Source: Candidatus Omnitrophota bacterium
Lineage (GTDB): Bacteria; Omnitrophota; Gorgyraeia; Tantalellales; Tantalellaceae
Length of the DNA stretch: 64,000 bases
Direction of reading: 5' to 3'
NCBI GenBank assembly: GCA_016783605.1
Contig: JADHWG010000001.1
Span: forward strand, 4,712 to 68,711
The position numbers were made by a program, and so were the translations under genes. Of the stretch, positions 3,715 through 41,736 are shown in pieces. Under the pieces are notes generated by a model. The model was not told the DNA's origin. It did no database searches and saw only the letters and a list, made by a program, of their open reading frames with translations. Each line of letters opens with the position of its first letter. The stretch's first letter is position 1.

Positions 3715-6700
3715 TTAGAGCGACGAATCGATCTGATCTATACAATCTTTCCAGTCGCTTCGATCTATTCTTTCCATTGGTATGCCGAGGAGAAGTGTTT
3801 CCAACACCAAACGCATTAAAGTAACCGCGGCGCCTATTTGGAGCATCCTTCTTTGCCCGGTTGGAATTTCATTATAGGAAAGCATCAGATATAAGTCTTT
3901 TATGTCAATATCCTGACTGTGCGTTACGGCTCGCATCAGCTTTTTTATGTCCTGAGCGAGAGTTTGTTCACCATTTTCCGCTTTTTGGACATCTTTAGGA
4001 GTGAGACATCCTTGGAGAATACCTATTCTTAAAGCAGTAGACGCGTATAGCCACCCTTTGCCGCTTAATCCTTCTATGTCGGGAAGAGACAAAATTCTTG
4101 TTTGTTTAAGTATGTCCTCCAATTTCTCAGGCATATCAAAATCGCTTTCAGGCTGTATAGCTGTAATATTTGATTCGGTCGCGAATAAAACGGGTATCCT
4201 TACGTCTTCAGGACTTTTCGAACTTAGACTGCTACTGAGCAAATTTACCACACTTTGCTGATCTAACCCTGCTTCACTATTGTATTCTTTAATCTTTACC
4301 GCTCCTTTACCGAAAAGTTTATCCAGATTCCGCTGAGTTTTTTCTTTGGAACCATCACCTGAAAGGCTATCAGAAAACATCTCTTTAGGAACGATAAGAT
4401 CGATCTTGTTTTTCTTTACGAGAGAAGCGTGTTTTTCTAGCATTTCGTATACGTTGTAAACAGCCTGTTCTCCTTCTGTATTAGCATAACTCGCCTCAAC
4501 AATAACTGTCTCACTATGCAAAGTCTTTTTAATCCAGTAGTCGTTAATTTCACGTACCGTGGGTGGTTTTCGGAAATGAAATTTTCTGCCGTCCGGACTC
4601 TCAATTATCAGTCTTCCTTCAATAGAATCCCCGTCTTCCCGAATATCCATGTTTACATCTATCACCTCTCCCGGTCCGAATACAACAATTTTTTCATCTT
4701 TATCCACAAGAAGATTATTGTTATTGATTTCGATCTCTACCGCGCCGCTCTTTACAACAAGCCTATGAGGTCTTTGCACTCCCCCATGTGTTATCCTCTT
4801 TGGCGGACGTTTCTTTTCACCATTAATCGTGATCACGTCCACTTCCTCGGATTTCAGACCATAATCTTTAATAACACCTCTTTCTTCGCTTGCAACAATA
4901 TTTGTTCCTCCTATTTTTTTGCCTTGTTTAAACGGTTTTGCAATTGGAATTTTTCTTTTCAGGGCGGGAACAAATATGTCCAGGATTTCCGCTTCTTGTT
5001 CTAACGTCTCAACTGATACGCTCTTCGCGGAAGCCGGGATCACAAGCAAGAATCCTCCTTTCGCTAAAGACACAATCTTTGCGGTTTTTATATCTCCCCT
5101 CGCGTCTGTAACAGAAATAGTCGCTGATCCTGTTTTAACAGCAAGGATGTGAAGTCCGTGTGTTGATTCCTCCGGTTCTTCCCCTAAAGATAAAACGTTT
5201 TTTCCGTCTGATTGTGCCATAATAATTCTGTCCATTCTGTAAGCACTCTTTACCAGAATGTTGAGTTCCACGCTATCCTTTTCTTGCAATTCTTTTACCC
5301 CCATTTCAGGAAACACAATACCGTTTTCCCGAATAGCGTCTTTGCCTAAAAGTTCTTCGGGAAAATATTTTAGCGCGCTCTTTAACTTCGACAGTGTGAT
5401 CGTCTTCGGCGCATCCGGTGATTCTAAGTTACATGCATCAATATCACCTTCGAGATCCAAATAAAACGGAGCCCCGTTTTTGATAGTTTCGGTTATCGTT
5501 GCGTCTATCCCTTCAGGTTCTTCTACATCTTCATAATATCCTTTTTGCCTGGCAAGCGGCGCGGCTTTTTGCGGTTCAGATTCATTCGCGGTCATTTCGG
5601 CGTGTACTGCCATTACTTCGTTGATCGGGGTAATAGCGGGCATATGTTTCCTGTCCGATATAATTTGAATTGTTTTCGCGAGATCATCATCAAGCTTTGT
5701 TTTTAAATTACTAACATTTGTCGAGCGGTATTCATACTCGGGAATGATCGCCTGTATCCCGGCTTTTTCCATATTTGCAATCTGCCGAGGAGCCGACACT
5801 GCTGTCGGGTCAATTACAGCATGTGTCACACCGGCTGATGCCAAAAATTCCGCCGGAATAATACCGGTATTGGATCCTGTTCCGCGTGTCGCGATATTAT
5901 CTTCGCGACCGTCGATCGTTATTATTTTTTTCTTTTCATCTGTCGTCGCGTCCCGGAATAACTCGCTCACGTCTTCACCGCGAAGTTCGCGAAGAGCCGC
6001 GTCAATGTGAAGCCGGGAAATACAATGAAAAATGTTCACTTTTTCAAGATCCACGCCGGCGTCTTCATAACCTTGTATCCACGGCATCCAGGGACCTTTT
6101 TCGTTTGCCTTAAAGTTGTACAAAAGATCGAGCCCGTCTTTTACACCCGCGGCAGTTTCGGCTAATTTAACCGCGTTCGCGAGGGTGTAAATATAGCGCG
6201 CGACAAACGCGCCGTTATAACCGGCGACCTCTACCATGCCTTCAATGATATCAGCCTTTGTTCCGCCGCCGTAAGAGATTTTCAATCTTTTTCGGTATTC
6301 TTCGCGCAGGTCTTCGATCATATTGTTCCACCAATCGCCTTTCCAAGCATCTTTATCTTTAAAAACATAGCCAAATAGTGTCGCAATATTTTCCGCCTGA
6401 GTTATCTCCATTTCCGAAGGCACTCCCAATTCCAAAAACACAGGTATCTGCTTTTCCAGACGGAATTTCGCGACCTTCTCATGAAGAGATGCTCCACGAA
6501 TCGCTTTAACAGGTTCATACGGATTTATAAACTGGTACAGAACGGTTTCTATCGGCACATTTTCGAACAGTATTTTTATCTGATAGTTTATCTCATAGAC
6601 CGTTGAAATTTCTTCTATGATGCGGCGTTTTACTTCATCTAAGTTATTCAGTATTACCTCGATTGTTTTGGCTATTGTACCTTGTTGGTCTATTATTTTT

Positions 6701-18937: not shown

Positions 18938-19899
18938 CTACCCCTTAATAACGCCTATTGGACGCATTTTTGCGACTTTTTTTGATAGTCCGGCGTTTTG
19001 GACTATATCTACCACATTCGTTACGTCTTTATACGCGTCTGACGCTTCTTCTCCAAGCGTATCTCGACCTGTATATCGTACAATAATGCCCTTATCGGCG
19101 AGTTCTCGAACGATGGAACGCCCTCGTGTGATCTTTTTGGCCAATGTACGCGACATCAATCTTCCCGCGCCGTGACATGTGGAATTAAACGTCTCTCGCG
19201 CCTCTTTTGTTCCGCTTAAAAGATAGGAACACGTGCCCATATCTCCCGGAATTATTACGGGCTGACCCGTTCGTCTATATTTTACCGGCAGGTCTTTGTG
19301 TCCCGGACCTAACGCGCGTGTGGCTCCCTTACGATGAACGCATAACGCGCGTAATTTGCCTTTAATTTCATAATTTTCTATTTTTCCGATATTATGCGCC
19401 ACATCATAAACCAAATGTAGACCTAAAGATTCAGCACTCGCGCCAAACACTTCTTCAAAAACTCCGCGTGTTAAATGCATTATCACTTGCCGGTTACACC
19501 ACGCGTAATTCGCCGCCGCGCGCATGGCGCCGAGATACGCTTCGCCTTCTTCGCTTTTAACCGGCACGCACGCGAGTTGACGATCCGGCATGTTTATTCC
19601 GAATTTTGACATCAGTTTTATCATGCTTGCCGCGTAATCACCGCACACTTGGTGTCCGAATCCTCTGGAGCCTGTATGTATCATTACCGTAATTTGTCCT
19701 TTTCTATACCGAATATTTTTGCTTCTTTTTCGCTGTAAATTTCATCCACCACCTGCACTTCAAGAAAATGGTTGCCCGAACCTAACGTCCCGGACTGTTT
19801 TTGTCCGCGCTGACGCGCGCGGAGCAACATCTTTTTCAAAAAGATCCGTCCGCATAAACCTTACGCCGCAATTTGATACTACAAAATTGTTAGCGATAA
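18938..19899 (-). pseudogene. rtcB: rtcB RNA ligase, disrupted: -1 frameshift in an A-run plus loss of the N-terminal ~120+ aa
   Basis: The C-terminal 248-aa ORF carries MIHTGSRGFGHQ…HGAGR. An upstream different frame carries [19 protein letters not shown]…FGIEK and terminates where the C-frame begins ([10 protein letters not shown]). Only ~90 bp, all of it repeat, separates this from the archease stop. Confidence 0.6.
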
Positions 19900-26590: not shown

Positions 26591-27952
26591 TTATAAATCT
26601 ACAACTTGAATTTCATTTGTATCGTTTATACTATTCATAAAGTCGTAAATTTTATTATCAAAAATTATGTCACTTTCAGCGATCGGTCTTTTTAAGCGGA
26701 TGCCTTCCAGGGCGCGGCATCGGCTTAACGCGACATAGGTCTGTCCATGAGTAAAAGCGCCGCGGCCGATATCTATCATAACTTTATCGAACGTCTGCCC
26801 CTGACTTTTGTGTATTGTTATCGCCCATGCCAATTTTATTGGATATTGTTTAAAACAACCGATAACTTTTTCCTCGATATTGTCAGTTTTTTTATTGTGA
26901 GAATATCGTATTTTTTCCCAAGTCATTTTGGGAACGTCACAAATTTTCTGATCTATACTCACCCGTATCAAACTGTCGGAGAGTTCTACAACCCTGCATA
27001 TCGTCCCGTTCACCCATTGTTTTTTAGGATCGTTTTTAACCATGATCACCTGGGCGCCGGTTTTCAGCGTAATATCTTTTTCGACCGGATAATCTTTATC
27101 TTTAAATTCTCCTTCTATTGAGGCGGAATATGTGAATTCTTCATTCGAAATTTGAGCGAGACGCTTTTTGTTAATTCTTTCCGCGACACTATTCGTTGCC
27201 GTTAACGTCACAACTCCTTCATTCTCCTCTCGATTATCACTATCTACTCTTTCGTTCAAACCAAAAAGATCGTCCGCGGCGCATATCTTTTCTCGGACTT
27301 TATTTAAGAGAGAGATAAATTTCTCATCTTTTTGCCTGTATATTTTACTGAGATCGATCGTTCTCAATTTAATTTCTCTAAATACGTTAGCGCTGAAAAA
27401 ATATGGACTGGTGTATCTCTGTTTTAGAATATCTTCGAATTCTTTGTTAACGACCGGCGGCAACTGAAAAAGGTCCCCGAACAAGATCATCCTCGCGCCT
27501 CCAAACGCCGAATTCATTTCATTTCTGTTCAATCTAAGCGAAGAATCTATCCCATCCAGCAGATCCGCCCTTACCATAGACGCCTCATCAATAACAACAG
27601 CATCAATGCGATGCATCAGATCATCTTTATATAAGCGTTTAATGTGGTCGCGCAGAATAAACCTCGGCGGAAACCTGAAAAAGGAATGAATCGTTTGTCC
27701 ATGCACTTTGATAGCCGCGACCCCGGTCGGCGCCAATACAACGATATTCTTTCGGGTGTTCATCCTGAAATATTCCAAGAGAGTTGACTTCCCCGTTCCG
27801 GCTTTCCCCGTAATAAAAATATGTTCACGAGAATTCTCCAAAAGTTCAAATGCCGCGCGAAATTCGTCATTAAACTCAAAGTCGGTCGGAAGTTCCGTTT
27901 TTGTCTCTCGTACAAGTTCATTTTTAAAATCATCCGGCATACTTAACTCCAA
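26591..27952 (-). CDS. Pif1/RecD-family (AAA_30) DNA helicase
   Basis: Walker A GKAGTGKST, VIDEASM, and C-terminal AITIHKSQGQTFD / GQTYVALSR motifs. Confidence 0.7.
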   Translation of the reverse strand: MELSMPDDFKNELVRETKTELPTDFEFNDEFRAAFELLENSREHIFITGKAGTGKSTLLEYFRMNTRKNIVVLAPTGVAAIKVHGQTIHSFFRFPPRFILRDHIKRLYKDDLMHRIDAVVIDEASMVRADLLDGIDSSLRLNRNEMNSAFGGARMILFGDLFQLPPVVNKEFEDILKQRYTSPYFFSANVFREIKLRTIDLSKIYRQKDEKFISLLNKVREKICAADDLFGLNERVDSDNREENEGVVTLTATNSVAERINKKRLAQISNEEFTYSASIEGEFKDKDYPVEKDITLKTGAQVIMVKNDPKKQWVNGTICRVVELSDSLIRVSIDQKICDVPKMTWEKIRYSHNKKTDNIEEKVIGCFKQYPIKLAWAITIHKSQGQTFDKVMIDIGRGAFTHGQTYVALSRCRALEGIRLKRPIAESDIIFDNKIYDFMNSINDTNEIQVVDL

Positions 27953-28127: not shown

Positions 28128-28595
28128 TTAAAACTTGAACTGCTGTTGTGGGTTTTCCTTCCTAATCTCTTTTTTAATAATCTGAATAAACTTAGTTGCC
28201 GAACTTAAGGCATTCTTTGCGTCAGTATTTGAAAGATTCAATTTCCACGGTTCATAGATGAATTTATTACGGTTTTTTCTCATATAATCAAATTTTGCGG
28301 TTAATGCTTTATATTCCGCACCCAAAAAATATTCCGTGAAACCCACAACTGTTTTGTGTTGGAAATTTGTTGTAGGTCTGAAGCCTTTTATGAATACAAA
28401 CGCTCTTGCCGCGTGAAGCATGGCGTTATAAGCCATCTCATATGAACATGTCTCATCTATCGCAAGTGTTTTTTCACTGGCCTTCAGTTTACTCTCTGCA
28501 GCCTGTATCAACTTCTCTATCTGACCTACTCCTATCTTCTCCCTTTTAATAAGCTTCTTTTCTAAATATTCATTCAAAAATTTATCAGAGTTCAT
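28128..28595 (-). CDS. HEPN-domain protein (putative toxin of a HEPN/MNT pair)
   Basis: 155 aa all-helical, with an Rx6H motif (FRPTTNFQH). Overlaps the upstream nucleotidyltransferase gene by 11 nt. Confidence 0.55.
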   Translation of the reverse strand: MNSDKFLNEYLEKKLIKREKIGVGQIEKLIQAAESKLKASEKTLAIDETCSYEMAYNAMLHAARAFVFIKGFRPTTNFQHKTVVGFTEYFLGAEYKALTAKFDYMRKNRNKFIYEPWKLNLSNTDAKNALSSATKFIQIIKKEIRKENPQQQFKF

Positions 28596-29157
28596 TTGCT
28601 GTTCCCTTTATTAATATTTTTTTTCCTTTCACTACCGCAGAGACAAAAGAATCTTTCTTCGCTTTTTCTTTTTTATATTCCTTTTCCGTATATGTCGTGT
28701 AATTGACTTCTCGGAACAATTCTTTTTCGAGTCCACTTATAACTGTTATTAAGTTGTTCTCATCAATATTGTCACCTATTAAAAACAGGTCTACATCACT
28801 ATCGTTTCTCTCATCTCCTTTAGCGAAGGATCCGTATACGAATGCCATCCTAATGCCATTTATAGCTATTATGGCGTCACTAAGATATTTGATGATTCCT
28901 TCTGTTTTGTGAAAAATATTTTTTAACTCTTCATATATGGGACTCCTCTTATTTAATGAAAAAAGCTTAATGTTTCCCACGCTTCTAACATTAAGCATCC
29001 CCAAAGAAAGAAGTTTTTTTAACTCCCGGTGTACATTTCCAACGGATATCTTATGCATTGAAGCCAACTGCCGGGTATAGAACTCATTGTCGGGTTCACC
29101 AAAGAACGTGCTCAATATGATCTGTCTGGTTTTTGATCCTAATATTTCTTTAAACAT
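28585..29157 (-). CDS. winged-HTH plus minimal nucleotidyltransferase (MNT) protein
   Basis: GSFAKGDERNDSDVDLFL nucleotidyltransferase (NTase) signature (GSx9-13DxD) with an N-terminal HTH. Confidence 0.7.
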   Translation of the reverse strand: MFKEILGSKTRQIILSTFFGEPDNEFYTRQLASMHKISVGNVHRELKKLLSLGMLNVRSVGNIKLFSLNKRSPIYEELKNIFHKTEGIIKYLSDAIIAINGIRMAFVYGSFAKGDERNDSDVDLFLIGDNIDENNLITVISGLEKELFREVNYTTYTEKEYKKEKAKKDSFVSAVVKGKKILIKGTANEL

Positions 29158-35251: not shown

Positions 35252-35454
35252 ATGTATTCACCTTACGTTATAATACTCGGGAAAATCCTTAAACCCAGAT
35301 ATTGCATTAGAACATGGCGAAGAATGCAATATCTGGGTTAAACATAACTGGTAAATCTTAGCACACATGCCCGCTATTGTCGAGAATTTCAGCATCCCCC
35401 ACCCAACACCCAATGCTAACTTTTATTATCTTAACCCACCTTGCTGGCAACTTC

Positions 35455-35535
35455 GTAGGGGCACGGCATGCCGTGCCCTTTATCACACAAATCACCAATC
35501 CCATGAGGGCACGGCATGCCGTGCCCCTACGAGGT
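35455..35535. repeat. BIME-like composite: REP-A, linker tttatcacacaaatcaccaatcccatga, REP-A, fused to a family-B half-site
   Basis: The same architecture recurs at 13180..13270. Confidence 0.8.
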
Positions 35536-36625: not shown

Positions 36626-37762
36626 ATGAATAAAAATATCCTCATAATATCCGGTGAACCTTCCGGCGACATGCGCGGAGGAGAATTGGTAAAGGAACTC
36701 TCAAAACTGGTTCCTGATCTTGAGTTCTGGGGTATCGGCGGCGACTCGATGAAACGTGAAGGCGTGTCTCTCTCTGAACATATTCGGGATTTTTCGTTTG
36801 TGGGAGCGTGGGAAGTTCTTTGTAATCTTGGCAAGATCCGTTCTCAATACAAAGATCTAACGGAACTTATTCTGAAAAAAAAACCACGCGCGGCTATTTT
36901 GATTGATTATCCCGGTTTTAATTTACGAATAGCGCGGTTTTTATATGAGCACAAAATTCCCGTGATCTATTACATCATCCCCCAGGTGTGGGCGTGGGGA
37001 GCGGGCAGAGTGAAGCATTTGAGAGATCATGTGGATAAAACTCTTGTTCTCTTTAAATTTGAAGAAACCTTTTTAACCAAGCGTGGAGTAAACGCTGAAT
37101 TCGCGGGTCATCCTTTGGTAGACACTGTCGCGCCTCCGGCGAATGAAAAACGCGAAGAAACCGTTCCGGATCACTTTACGATCGCGCTTTTGCCGGGCTC
37201 AAGAAAACATGAAGTTCAGAGTTTACTCCCTGTCATGCTCCAAACCGCCGAAAAGATCAGTCTTAAAAAACCGGGGATCCGTTTCATTGTCGCGGAAAAT
37301 TCCAACGTAGATAGGTCCTTATACGATTCGCTTCTTTCGCCTTACGCGCATCTCTCCATTACACGTGTTACAAACAAAACGTTTAACGCGCTAGATATGG
37401 CCGACTTCGCCATCATAACTTCGGGGACGGCGACACTTGAGGCGGCTCTCTTAAAAAAACCAATGATCATCACATATAAAGCGGCTTTCATCACTTTCGT
37501 TTTATACCACATAGTTAATAAAGCCCCTTTTCTCGGATTGGTTAATATCATAGCGGGGAAAAAAATCGTTCCGGAACTTCTTCAGAATGACGCAAAAAGC
37601 GAAAAATTGGCCGCCGAAACGTTAGAGATAATTTCGCGTCCGGATAAAATGCGCGAAACAAAAGAAGCCCTCCAAAAAGTCGCCGACGCGTTAGGCGAAA
37701 AAGGCGCCGCTTTAAGAGCCGCCCGATCCATCGCCAAATTCCTTCGTGAAAAAAATATTTAA
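36626..37762 (+). CDS. lpxB: lipid-A-disaccharide synthase
   Basis: LpxB N-terminus ILIISGEPSGD…GIGGD and GT-B fold, full length (378 aa). Confidence 0.85.
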   Translation: MNKNILIISGEPSGDMRGGELVKELSKLVPDLEFWGIGGDSMKREGVSLSEHIRDFSFVGAWEVLCNLGKIRSQYKDLTELILKKKPRAAILIDYPGFNLRIARFLYEHKIPVIYYIIPQVWAWGAGRVKHLRDHVDKTLVLFKFEETFLTKRGVNAEFAGHPLVDTVAPPANEKREETVPDHFTIALLPGSRKHEVQSLLPVMLQTAEKISLKKPGIRFIVAENSNVDRSLYDSLLSPYAHLSITRVTNKTFNALDMADFAIITSGTATLEAALLKKPMIITYKAAFITFVLYHIVNKAPFLGLVNIIAGKKIVPELLQNDAKSEKLAAETLEIISRPDKMRETKEALQKVADALGEKGAALRAARSIAKFLREKNI

Positions 37763-37902
37763 TACACACATCATCCAATACCGTAAATTAATAGGACGAG
37801 AGGCCAATCACTAGCCTACGAGAATAGTGGTTGAAAGTTGTTGTTCCTTCGTTTTTCGAAAAAGGAATAGATTCATCCGAAAGAAAATGTTTATGGAATG
37901 AA

Positions 37903-37932
37903 AACGCCCACCTTTTAAAGTGGGCGTTTTAA
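37903..37932. terminator. bidirectional intrinsic terminator (aaacgcccaccttttaaagtgggcgtttt)
   Basis: Perfect 10-bp stem flanked by A/T runs, ~140 bp downstream of the 223-aa ORF. Confidence 0.6.
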
Positions 37933-38070
37933 ACTTTCCAGTGCCTAGTCAGTGACCACTACAACCACCCCCACTGGATAGGACAGAGGTTGGGCCATCC
38001 TGACATCTCAACTACGTAGTAGATAGTGCCATGTTTTCACCAAGAAGTCAAGGCTTCTTTATTAATGCTA

Positions 38071-38742
38071 CTATCTAGCTATATCCCTCCCTCTATATGG
38101 ACGAGACCGACAGATTTTCTTCAATAACTCTAGCTCATTATCAGGAGTATAAGCTGTTACAAAGCTCATAGGAGAACCGGCCTTTTTCTTAGTAACAATC
38201 AAGTAATTATTGACCTTATTCTCATACTTTTTCGTCACTTCATCTTTATACCTAATGAGAAACTGCATAACATAGTAATATGTAATCCAGTTGTCTTCAT
38301 TTAATTCATATATTTGTGTAGCATTTTCAAGTGTATATTTTATCCAGGGTAGTCTTTTTGCTCTACTTCGTTGAAAATTTTCGTCAGTTTTTATTTTTTT
38401 ACCCGTAAACGGATCTTTAAATAGACTATCAAACACTTTGTCTCCCAGCGTCACGATTCTACCGTACTTATCTTTGCTCCCTTTAGGAATTTTCCTCAAG
38501 TAATATTCTAAAGCCTCGTCTTGGCTTAAATTTTCTTTTCTCATCAAAATCGCAAGTTCATCCGTACATTCAATGGGGCGGACTTTGAGATTGAAATCTG
38601 TTACCAAATCTATTGCTTCATGTATCATTACAGGCTTCAAATTTGGCTTTCTATATGCGATTTGCTTAAAGGATAATACTTTCAGAATAGTACAGAATAT
38701 ATTTCCTAAATAATTTCTGTTTGCTTTTGAAAAAGTTCTCAA
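38071..38742 (-). CDS. hypothetical 223-aa protein (no recognisable family) in AT-rich islet
   Basis: ORF at about 33% GC, against ~47% in the flanks. Its start overlaps the stop of the upstream PilZ gene (ATGA). Confidence 0.5.
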   Translation of the reverse strand: MRTFSKANRNYLGNIFCTILKVLSFKQIAYRKPNLKPVMIHEAIDLVTDFNLKVRPIECTDELAILMRKENLSQDEALEYYLRKIPKGSKDKYGRIVTLGDKVFDSLFKDPFTGKKIKTDENFQRSRAKRLPWIKYTLENATQIYELNEDNWITYYYVMQFLIRYKDEVTKKYENKVNNYLIVTKKKAGSPMSFVTAYTPDNELELLKKICRSRPYRGRDIAR

Positions 38743-39077
38743 TTGTGAAGAAAAGTTCTGTTTTTTATTCTTTGTTCAAAGCAAATATGTTCTTTAATTT
38801 TTTTAGATAATTCGGTATTTTTGCTCCTAAATTTTATGCCACTATTCTTAGATTGAGCCCATACAACTTCTCCGCTTATTCCATGTGTTTTCAAATATCG
38901 ATCAAACGAAATATGTAAAAATACGCTACTCCCTTTAGGGATATCCGCAGAAGCCCTTAGACCTGTCAAACTAATATCTTTGCAAACAGAATCTACTTTA
39001 CGACCTCCAGGCTTCAACAAATAAGCAATTTTAACATCTTTTGATGGAACCCGTATGTGATCCCTATTTTCTTTCAT
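38739..39077 (-). CDS. PilZ-domain protein (putative c-di-GMP receptor)
   Basis: RxxxR (RDHIR) and D-x-S-x-x-G (DISLTG) c-di-GMP-binding motifs in a 112-aa protein. Confidence 0.55.
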   Translation of the reverse strand: MKENRDHIRVPSKDVKIAYLLKPGGRKVDSVCKDISLTGLRASADIPKGSSVFLHISFDRYLKTHGISGEVVWAQSKNSGIKFRSKNTELSKKIKEHICFEQRIKNRTFLHN

Positions 39078-39164
39078 TAAAAAATATTCCTCTATCCTAA
39101 TGTTGAAACAGACATTTAACTTACGAGATTAAGCGGTTCCGCTCTATTTACCAACGACTATTCG

Positions 39165-39962
39165 CTACAAAACCTGCAGAACAATTTTGTTGATGTTCGC
39201 TATGTCTATTGTTTCTCTTCGGTCAATAAGAAACATTTTCGTGCTTTCCACCGCGAGAGCGCTGAATCCGTTTTCCGCCAAAAGCCTCATTGTGTCGGCT
39301 CCGACGGTCGGGACATCCCATCTCGAGTCTTGTTTCGGCCGACTCACTTTCACCATTACGCAGGCTCTTCCGGCAATTCCAAAAGCTCTTTTTATCACCT
39401 CATCCGTTCCTTCCATCGCCTCGACCGCGATCACTGTTTTATCTTTCACGATCAAGGTTTGCCCTATATCCATACCGGCGATCTGTTTTGCGATCGCGTA
39501 TCCGAATTCTATGTCGCGGCGAATTTTTTCATCGGGCTGAACGGCGCTTAAGACACCTTTTTCCGGCACAAGATGTGATAAATATTCTTTTCCGTCCATC
39601 ACTTCTATTCCGATTTTTTTTAGATGACGCGTAATCTCTTCCAAAATGGAATAGTCTTCCTTGTTTTTTAACTTTTTTAACGCGTTTTCGGCTTCCGTGT
39701 CGTATTTTTCGCTAAACAACACTTTTTTGTCTACCTTACCTAAAAGCGCCAAATGACGGATCCGCTCTCGGACCAGCAAAAAGGCAAATTTCGCGTATTG
39801 ACCGATCTCGACCCAATAAACTTTATGCGCGTCGCGCACGGCTTTCTCCGACGCCATGCCTCGAAGCGCGAATACCACCACTTTTTCTTCTCTGGCGGTC
39901 GCTTGCTTAATAAATTCTAACGGAAGACTCCCGCCGCCCGCTATTAATCCGATTTTTTTCAT
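39165..39962 (-). CDS. lpxI: UDP-2,3-diacylglucosamine hydrolase LpxI (DUF1009)
   Basis: IGLIAGGGSLP N-terminus plus DUF1009 architecture, in the lipid A cluster. The track start MKNLPPRQPRRLHLRGAI is a repeat translation, so I moved the start to MKKIGLI. Confidence 0.65.
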   Translation of the reverse strand: MKKIGLIAGGGSLPLEFIKQATAREEKVVVFALRGMASEKAVRDAHKVYWVEIGQYAKFAFLLVRERIRHLALLGKVDKKVLFSEKYDTEAENALKKLKNKEDYSILEEITRHLKKIGIEVMDGKEYLSHLVPEKGVLSAVQPDEKIRRDIEFGYAIAKQIAGMDIGQTLIVKDKTVIAVEAMEGTDEVIKRAFGIAGRACVMVKVSRPKQDSRWDVPTVGADTMRLLAENGFSALAVESTKMFLIDRRETIDIANINKIVLQVL

Positions 39963-39982
39963 GATATTGTCTGATTGTCTCA

Positions 39983-40047
39983 CCCCCTCGACAACCTCGT
40001 AGATTGCACCTCGTAGGTGCAACCTACGAGGTTGTCGAGGGGGTAAA
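39983..40047. repeat. family-B triloop-hairpin palindrome cluster
   Basis: caacctcgtagattgcacctcgtaggtgcaacctacgaggttg. Confidence 0.7.
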
Positions 40048-40105
40048 TTTTTCAATTTCTTTTGTCATCCCCGCTTAACGCCTGCGGGGACAAGCTTGAA
40101 TTTTG

Positions 40106-41418: not shown

Positions 41419-41487
41419 CTTTTGTTCGGTATCTTCTTGTTATACAATTACACTAATTAATCGTACATTTTAATGTTTTTCCATTTT

Positions 41488-41553
41488 ATTCGGGCACATG
41501 CAATGTGCCCCTACAATTCGGGCAAATCTATTCGGGCACATGCAATGTGCCCC
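41488..41553. repeat. family-C palindromes, two copies (TTCGGGCACATGCAATGTGCCC)
   Basis: Also present at 48496..48557 (two copies) and 49309..49330. Confidence 0.75.
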
Positions 41554-41736
41554 CACAATTTGTTTTGGCCGCCAAGCGGACCCATGTGTCCGCCCGCCTT
41601 GCTATCCCGGGATCTCGTATGTCCCCAACAATAGTTTAGTTTGAACACCTAAATATACGCATACACAAAGGCCAACACCTCGCTTCTTGAGAATATTGGC
41701 CTTTATAAATTTTTGGCTTCGGTTGTTTTTATTTTT

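Follow-up and report, generated by a model that had tools for sequence, protein, structure and literature searches.

Ribonuclease toxins of the BECR fold are known with protein immunity or antitoxin partners, and the BECR-fold tRNase toxins with protein immunity include CdiA-CT Kp342 and NC101, colicin D, colicin E5, RelE and BrnT. In the type III toxin-antitoxin systems (ToxIN, CptIN, TenpIN) the antitoxin lies upstream of the toxin, from which a terminator separates it, and has a unit of about 36 nucleotides (nt); the known antitoxins are tandem repeats of a unit much shorter than the RNA described here and are co-transcribed with the toxin. Cyclic-dinucleotide sensor-effector fusions provide a further point of reference; they include PilZ-output proteins such as YcgR or BcsA and, in the cyclic-oligonucleotide-based antiphage signalling system, bacterial TIR-STING. 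Here we analyze a stretch of 64,000 nt from Candidatus Omnitrophota bacterium (assembly GCA_016783605.1, contig JADHWG010000001.1, positions 4,712 to 68,711), referred to below as the window. Between its convergent genes lpxB and lpxI lies an islet that carries a cassette consisting of a gene for a PilZ protein fused to a predicted endoribonuclease, split in this copy, and of a conserved small RNA gene. The best explanation of the cassette, which we hold with about even confidence, is a mobile RNase-toxin effector with a dedicated RNA partner and with cyclic di-GMP (c-di-GMP) input through PilZ.

The islet is a horizontally acquired insertion, because relatives of the same synteny have empty sites and because its composition deviates. 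Homologues of LpxI assign the host to Omnitrophota. The gene order DnaB-BamA-OmpH-LpxC-FabZ-LpxI><LpxB-GFO/IDH/MocA-MsbA is common to the window, to loci from three samples (L062-L064, with LpxI 90% identical to that of the window) and to a further relative (L066, 80%). The lpxI/lpxB spacers in these relatives measure 179 and 89 nt, compared with 1402 nt in the window, and their sequence is unrelated to the islet. Nucleotide homology of 87-90% between the window and the same relatives breaks off exactly at 37762 and 39165, both of which are stop codons. A preliminary description of the window, made from the letters alone, had pointed to the segment of about 1.4 kb between the converging genes, had taken it for horizontally acquired and had proposed looking for the empty site in relatives; the spacers found here bear it out in all of this. 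Its picture of an AT-rich islet holds for the open reading frames (ORFs), with 33.0% GC in the PilZ ORF and 33.5% in the second ORF, and windowed GC falls to 0.30-0.36 across 38100..39150. The flanking value of about 47% that it gave is somewhat high (44.9% in lpxB, 46.0% in lpxI and 42.3% in the whole window), and the lpxB-proximal 300 nt or so of the islet (37763..38070) are not AT-rich, the RNA core that lies there having 52.4% GC. No integrase or transposase was found among the islet ORFs, and a repeat search around the islet gave no convincing flanking repeats or target duplications. An imperfect AT-rich inverted repeat of 31 nt, 71% complementary (37858..37888 / 39066..39096), brackets the PilZ-RNase-RNA unit almost exactly and may be due to chance or a relic of the cassette ends.

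The two ORFs of the islet are the halves of one gene, split by a deletion of one nucleotide in an A7 run of the interdomain linker. The first encodes 112 amino acids (aa) that match the PilZ profile PF07238 over positions 2-99 of 102 (E value 5.5e-10; 39.9 bits against a cutoff of 22.5), and its translation contains the c-di-GMP-binding motifs RDHIR (RxxxR) and DISLTG (DxSxxG), so the earlier recognition of a PilZ protein from these motifs is upheld. Of the eight PilZ copies compared, those of P0002, P0006-P0010 and P0031 retain both motifs, and P0003 has the variant DITIAG. When the 223-aa product of the second ORF was searched against 5.8 billion clusters, six proteins were returned. Three of them, P0002 (342 aa), P0003 (332 aa) and P0006 (328 aa), align over 97-98% of the query and have a PilZ domain as an N-terminal extension, and a HMMER search added the more distant fusions P0007-P0010 (327-344 aa). 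In seven other lineages, then, PilZ and the C-terminal part are encoded as a single protein of 327-344 aa. Three-frame translation of the window upstream of the TTG start of the second ORF gives, in the -1 frame, TKNKKQNFSSQLRTFSK, and this matches RIKKPNFLLLLKLFS of P0003 in an ungapped alignment; when one A is added, the window reads RIKKQNFSSQLRTFSK and again aligns to that segment without gaps. At the nucleotide level the linker is AGA ATA AAA AAC AGA (A6) in the window and CGA ATA AAA AAA CCA (A7) in the in-frame locus L003, and the gene is split because this one A is missing. The break is not an assembly error, since an independent ENA assembly (L001, 99.8% identity, no gaps) has the identical break and the exact 112-aa PilZ protein is present on five contigs (NCBI name PilZ domain-containing protein, MBL7072184.1). 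NCBI annotates two products from the metagenome-assembled genome (MAG) of this Candidatus Omnitrophica, namely MBL7072184.1 and the 185-aa MBL7072183.1, which starts at the internal ATG shown in Table 1.

Two other lineages are broken in the same region of the gene. In L004/L005, from two samples, the linker has two extra nucleotides outside the A-run and a -1 shift would restore the frame, and in L007-L009, from three samples, there is one extra A in the A-run of the linker and a +1 shift is needed. Upstream of the linker, L007-L009 have no recognizable PilZ and stop codons in all frames. An AlphaFold2 (AF2) model of the fused P0002 (predicted local distance difference test, pLDDT, 81.9; predicted template modelling score, pTM, 0.61) has a sole internal stretch of low confidence at residues 105-119, and all three observed breaks fall within it.

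The preliminary description had read the pair as a two-gene operon, a PilZ protein followed by a separate partner, with overlapping ATGA codons. The overlap of the two ORFs does amount to 4 nt, NCBI lists two proteins, and at present only separate polypeptides can be made unless ribosomes shift frame, all of which would suit a genuine operon with translational coupling between a free-standing PilZ receptor and a separate effector of 223 aa. Such a design could also account for the methionine that both split lineages, the window and L007, have at the equivalent linker position (the internal ATG of the window) and that the fused homologues are without. The overlap is TTGA, however, the second ORF starting at TTG, and no Shine-Dalgarno sequence is seen there. 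The seven fused lineages, the persistence of homology in the -1 frame ahead of the TTG and the A6 run set against A7 all speak for one gene. Furthermore, the positions of the split vary by lineage, which argues against a conserved coupled design. We therefore consider a coupled operon improbable, and as the ancestral design it appears from these comparisons to be largely refuted.

A single gene could still yield two products if the break were a programmed -1 ribosomal frameshift at A_AAA_AAC, so that PilZ by itself and the PilZ-RNase fusion would be made at a fixed ratio. The canonical heptamer is indeed in phase (AUA AAA AAC, 38766..38760) where the two frames overlap for 36 nt, a shift of -1 is what the window needs, different assemblies show the break unchanged, and L004/L005, which also need -1, have an in-phase A_AAA_AAU upstream of their break. 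No stimulatory hairpin or pseudoknot follows the window heptamer at 5-9 nt, though, since the 77 nt at 38766..38690 fold with -8.7 kcal/mol (z -0.93), and equal heptamers occur in the in-frame L003 and L006, where they are plain Lys-Lys or Lys-Asn codons of AT-rich DNA. With the L004 break being a 2-nt insertion outside the A-run, L007 needing +1 and seven relatives in frame, programmed frameshifting seems very improbable to us, and we return to a fused gene split by a deletion.

The protein family is small, with 86 relatives among 1.84 billion representatives in an exhaustive HMMER search, and most of these are stand-alone proteins of 220-266 aa that start at the linker helices. Because most members lack PilZ, the PilZ domain seems to be an accessory addition that has been repeatedly uncoupled or lost. 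PDB sequence searches and Foldseek against the PDB gave nothing significant for the C-terminal part. Weak but consistent similarities nevertheless connect the C-terminal domain with BECR-fold RNase toxins, that is, with PBECR2, PADLOC PDC-M04B, CdiA-CT and colicins D and E5. The 223-aa protein, which the preliminary description could place in no family, matches eight PDC-M04B models (best 1.4e-6), and 27 of 56 family members have such matches too. In three relatives the region preceding the C-domain matches LPD3. An AF2 model of the C-terminal part (pLDDT 83.6, pTM 0.81) consists of helical repeats and an α+β domain, and its structural neighbors, at weak similarity, are BECR rather than ToxN-like.

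The predicted C-domain has a helix at 127-140 followed by four antiparallel strands at 143-148, 152-166, 173-187 and 192-198 (pLDDT 87-94 here), which fits the PBECR/BECR fold definition of Iyer, Burroughs, Anand, de Souza & Aravind 2017 (PMC5512222). R127 does not vary among 56 sequences, and conservation of R130 and T196 is 90% or higher; in the model the helix holds both arginines and the last strand holds T196. The active-site configuration of this fold is a His (or Arg) in the helix plus a Thr/Ser near the C-terminus, and the same authors describe one PBECR family with the Arg form (PMC5512222), and R127/R130 together with T196 would fit that configuration, the correspondence being by predicted secondary structure element. 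The C-terminal part is thus predicted to be a BECR/PBECR-like endoribonuclease, although by formal criteria it falls outside the family.

Neighborhoods of the relatives give a second line of evidence. A XRE-like helix-turn-helix protein, HTH_17 and a tyrosine integrase lie within 1 kb in L002, and AbiLi (4.4e-76) and AbiLii are directly upstream in L004. Among distant stand-alone homologues, L053 has GmrSD_N, IS1595, PDDEXK_5 and a tRNA-like gene abutting the homologue start, and L054 has Fic, a resolvase, a primase and a HEPN-like PD-Lambda-3_B protein. The family travels on mobile elements among defence genes, as its integrase, AbiL, GmrSD and HEPN neighbors indicate. Taken with the BECR/PDC-M04B likeness, they make the signalling-gated effector or defence module of the preliminary description a reasonable idea, without the separate-partner layout that it assumed. 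Neither a recognizable nor a shared protein antitoxin candidate was found in the PilZ-fusion loci examined (window, L002, L004). The tRNA-like gene of L053 is called by ARAGORN as an 87-nt tRNA-Ile(TAT)-like gene at 5904..5990 (+), whose end lies 10 nt ahead of the start of the stand-alone homologue P0092 and which may mark the integration site of that island or reflect a functional link to a tRNase.

An RNase of this kind might also be an offensive or anti-defence protein of phage or conjugative-element origin, like the PBECR domains of polyvalent proteins, and give the host no protection. PBECR2 and LPD3 are domains of phage polyvalent proteins, the best matches in BFVD are large phage proteins of polyvalent type (a 1385-aa phage protein first, with an E value of 1.5e-3, and an LPD-containing protein at rank 10), and the homologues in L055-L061 stand in ASCH/DUF4417/NYN operons that look element-borne. 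Yet searches of IMG/VR, of 50,697 phage records and of 72,556 plasmid records gave no protein relative, several of the neighbors are host defence genes, and a PilZ sensor implies signalling of the host cell. An offensive role is in our judgement very unlikely, and the toxin-type effector of a mobile defence-associated module remains the preferred reading of the protein. By these searches and the RNA-pattern scans given below, the cassette is rare and so far confined to uncultured lineages.

Downstream of the PilZ-RNase gene lies the third part of the cassette, a small RNA gene of about 120 nt (Table 1), which the preliminary description had missed; in sum, its observations were partly confirmed and its interpretation partly supported. 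Five lineages have a contig that continues beyond the stop codon, and in each of them the gene is followed by the same block of promoter-like hexamers, an 82-nt core, a G+C-rich hairpin and a U tract. By our reading, the -35-like hexamers of the other lineages are TTGACA (L003, L004, L007) and ATGACT (L002) with 17-nt spacers, and the -10-like hexamers of these four are CATAAT, TAGTAT, GATATT and CATACT. Equivalent terminator hairpins follow the RNA in L002, L003 and L004. What had been described as a bidirectional terminator of the islet at 37903..37932 is a real hairpin (37901..37930), and it ends the separate small RNA gene; it may also stop lpxB transcription from the opposite side. Since in L003 the entire unit from promoter through terminator is inverted relative to the protein gene, the RNA is probably an independent transcription unit.

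The RNA is conserved and structured and strictly co-occurs with the gene. A covariance model of the core (R1) scores 78-108 bits in L001-L005 and L007-L009, and it finds the RNA in all nine PilZ-fusion loci that are long enough and nowhere else in 149 kb scanned. Mean core identity between lineages is 89.3%, compared with 65.1% for the adjacent coding DNA. The proposed structure comprises P1 (GUCAG/CUGAC), P2 and P3, together with a 6-bp pseudoknot that pairs the P3 loop with the 3' tail, and has 26 pairs with 99.2% of cells paired. Four pairs show compensatory double changes; each is confined to a single lineage, with two in the window lineage and one apiece in L003 and L004. The covariation score, and likewise the percentage paired, was reached by 4 of 500 shuffles, and slid controls had none of these structural features. 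In the pseudoknot helix there is one compensatory change (CCAGUG/CACUGG and CCAGCG/CGCUGG), with 100% of pairs formed in 4 sequences, and the window RNA folds with a z-score of -3.26. Searches of the islet and four related loci against Rfam 15 at permissive E values gave chance matches alone.

Several other readings of this conservation were rejected. A type I-like antisense action was discarded because RNA duplex energies with the PilZ-RNase mRNA were no better than those of shuffles and fell at differing positions. The micro-peptide MSGWPNL... does not explain the conservation, since the micro-ORF stops after 7, 9, 13 or 15 codons depending on the lineage and conservation runs about 50 nt further. 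A hammerhead-like reading of CUGACGAGGCGCUGGAAA fails by eye because stem II is impossible and because the window has CUGACUA, and an alternative CAACC/GGUUG helix is broken in two lineages.

The distant stand-alone homologues L053 and L054 have a different small-RNA-like unit in the equivalent position, with a promoter (our reading) and a terminator hairpin. R1 does not detect these type-2 RNAs, and a covariance model shared by type 1 and type 2 is unsupported. Behind the distant homologues P0071 and P0100 there are non-coding gaps of 420-510 nt (L055 943..1365 and L061 3587..4096) that share blocks such as TTACGCCGGCAATTACGGGA and CACCATTA, and the operons concerned have the order ASCH + 148/169-aa + X. 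These shared blocks may represent a third RNA type in the equivalent position.

Whether the small RNA acts as an antitoxin can be weighed on these data. It might instead serve the RNase as a substrate or as a processed guide, regulate other genes, act as a tRNA-like decoy or code for the micro-peptide. It occurs in a single copy, has its own promoter and lies downstream, unlike type III antitoxins, and an ATG opens a short ORF inside the core. On the other hand, the length of that micro-ORF varies and the substitutions keep base pairs and not codons, antisense complementarity does not exceed shuffled controls, and the RNA accompanies the gene strictly in the available loci, where the fusion loci examined share no protein antitoxin candidate. 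We hold a role other than antitoxin to be less likely than not, and a neutralizing RNA partner is what we consider most likely.

Compared with described systems, the cassette resembles several and belongs to none. With PBECR2 and other PBECR domains it shares the predicted core helix followed by four antiparallel strands, and its conserved Arg in the helix and conserved Thr in the last strand would fit the configuration of one PBECR family; it differs in that the cassette protein lies outside polyvalent or MuF/portal proteins and has a PilZ fusion and a dedicated small RNA, neither of which is reported for PBECR. Gene B of PADLOC PDC-M04 is matched by the window protein as given above. No match to the partner PDC-M04A was found in the PilZ and nine neighboring proteins of related loci, and PDC-M04 is a candidate system, itself uncharacterized, for which a literature search returned no paper. 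The likeness to ToxIN, CptIN and TenpIN lies in a predicted endoribonuclease beside a non-coding RNA with a predicted pseudoknot, in mobile elements, in adjoining abortive-infection genes and in fusion loci that, where examined, show no recognizable or shared candidate for a protein antitoxin. The toxin of the cassette, however, is BECR-like, with no match to ToxN, CptN or TenpN (AbiQ-like) in Pfam, NCBIfam and PADLOC, and there are no tandem repeats in 37600..39300. The cassette therefore fails membership of type III (toxin family, no repeat array, downstream RNA) and of PDC-M04 (no A gene), and the likeness is at most an analogy. Like YcgR, BcsA and TIR-STING, the fused protein joins a predicted c-di-GMP-binding module to an output domain; in contrast to them, the cassette encodes no dedicated cyclase. 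A literature search found no description of PilZ fused to an RNase-toxin-like domain.

Put together, the cassette would consist of two genes, one for the PilZ-RNase fusion and a separately transcribed one for the RNA of about 120 nt. The intact first gene is predicted to encode a protein that starts with a PilZ barrel and continues through a flexible linker and a helical region to a C-terminal BECR/PBECR-like domain, this domain being a putative metal-independent endoribonuclease that would be the toxin-type effector of a defence-island-associated mobile module. The small RNA, predicted to fold into a compact three-helix structure with a 6-bp pseudoknot, would be its dedicated partner and most likely a neutralizing, type III-like antitoxin that binds the protein. 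In one subfamily PilZ would couple effector activity to cellular c-di-GMP. In the window copy the sensor would be genetically uncoupled, with the effector still translatable from the TTG (223 aa) or from the internal ATG (185 aa). If this is right, the cassette could stand for a class of protein-RNA toxin-antitoxin or abortive-infection systems that has yet to be described. In it a single-copy, separately transcribed pseudoknotted RNA would restrain a BECR-fold RNase and thereby be a novel sort of type III-like antitoxin, and a subfamily would have added PilZ to become c-di-GMP-gated; we put this forward as a tentative proposal, well short of even confidence.

Several results weigh against the functional reading, whose basis is a weak similarity of fold, the genomic context and the RNA of five lineages; the anatomy of the cassette is well supported. 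The 223-aa ORF matches no family in Pfam or NCBIfam and has no match to PBECR2 at an E value of up to 1. The PBECR2 (PF18810) matches that cover the whole C-domain in four relatives reach about 22 bits, below the gathering score of 27.1. In the RNA, the -10 hexamer of the window is weak (3 of 6 positions) and is not called by a consensus scan, and a single copy of about 120 nt that lies downstream, is separately promoted and can be inverted differs from the type III arrangement. The RNA evidence covers five lineages only. A two-anchor type-1 pattern gave no further copies in GTDB species genomes or Joint Genome Institute (JGI) metagenomes but chance matches without the rest of the motif, and in IMG/VR a type-1 15-mer gave chance matches and the type-2 pattern none.

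Finally, with the gene broken in the window as well as in two further lineages, the copy in the window may have lost its function. It could be a decaying remnant, inactivated by the frameshift, whose ORFs and RNA have no current function here. Breaks in three of the six closest lineages (that of the window and its five nearest homologues), the loss of a recognizable PilZ part upstream of the linker in L007-L009, the lack of an integrase or other mobility gene in the window and the weak -10 would all be consistent with decay. Against this, 164-223 C-terminal codons are conserved and stop-free in all three broken lineages, every break is in the linker or the PilZ part, an identical intact 183-aa ORF occurs in the three samples of L007-L009, and the RNA is nearly invariant with compensatory changes. 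We regard a mere remnant as unlikely, though less so than a coupled operon, and retain an effector genetically uncoupled from its sensor as the better account of the window copy.

Table 1. Features of the islet and its flanking genes, in window coordinates
Feature	Position	Strand	Basis or remark
lpxB	36626..37762	+	Pfam LpxB 7.7e-88
Islet, inserted spacer between the lpxB and lpxI stop codons	37763..39164	.	1402 nt, converging genes
Intrinsic terminator of the small RNA, hairpin 37901..37930 and U tract	37897..37930	-	Inverted repeat I4, 14 nt, 93% complementary; folds as 13-bp hairpin, then UUUU
Small RNA gene, ~120 nt	about 38016..37897	-	Downstream of the PilZ-RNase gene; conserved structured unit
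RNA core (type 1), predicted pseudoknot	37931..38012	-	82 nt; covariance model R1 107 bits
Promoter-like elements, TTGACT 38051..38046, 17-nt gap, CACTAT 38028..38023	38023..38051	-	Read by eye
C-terminal half: linker, helical (LPD-like) region, predicted BECR/PBECR-like RNase domain	38071..38775	-	223-aa ORF 38071..38742 from TTG; frame open from 38775
Internal ATG, Met39 of the 223-aa ORF, gene callers' start for the 185-aa product	38626..38628	-	P0001 and MBL7072183.1 begin there
PilZ ORF, 112 aa, N-terminal half of the split PilZ-RNase fusion gene	38739..39077	-	Pfam PilZ; aligns to residues 1-~110 of fused homologues P0002, P0003, P0006-P0010
Frame break, A6 run read AUA AAA AAC, heptamer A_AAA_AAC in phase	38760..38766	-	-1 frame open from 38775
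lpxI	39165..40055	-	Pfam LpxI_N and LpxI_C

Elsewhere in the window, a low-GC stretch at 20-29 kb (0.33-0.38 GC) contains ORFs for a HEPN-domain protein (155 aa, 5e-07) and a Pol-beta-type nucleotidyltransferase (190 aa, 2.6e-10) at 28128..29157 (-), which overlap by 11 nt and form the usual HEPN/MNT toxin-antitoxin pair. A PIF1-like helicase (1.2e-27) at 26591..27952 (-), beside a two-component system and a Na/Pi-cotransporter-PhoU gene, lies in the low-GC stretch as well, and this region may be another acquired segment. RtcB repairs 2',3'-cyclic-phosphate RNA ends of the kind that BECR RNases make. At 18938..19684 (-) there is an RtcB RNA-ligase ORF that covers profile positions 184-426 of 426, the N-terminal 40% being missing from the ORF, which might mean that the frame is broken, that an intein intervenes or that translation starts in a different frame; as 19 kb separate it from the islet, no link is claimed. 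Two GC-rich palindromic repeats look like repetitive extragenic palindromic (REP) elements: GGGCACGGCATGCCGTGCCC, present twice at 35450..35535 within an inverted repeat of 30 nt (97%) that lies between msbA and the GFO/IDH/MocA gene, and a 32-nt unit (TATTCGGGCACATGCAATGTGCCCC.ACAATT), present twice at 41487..41560 downstream of lpxC.

For the annotation of this Omnitrophota MAG, the "PilZ protein + hypothetical protein" are one interrupted gene, and a small RNA gene is missing beside it. If the proposed mechanism holds, that RNA would define a structured family absent from Rfam 15 with a clear protein partner, which would make it experimentally tractable. BECR RNase toxins would gain an RNA-partnered form, and the narrow type III class would be broadened beyond ToxN-like toxins and repeat-array antitoxins. 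The fusion of PilZ to a toxin would then be a direct link from c-di-GMP signalling to a growth-arrest or suicide effector.

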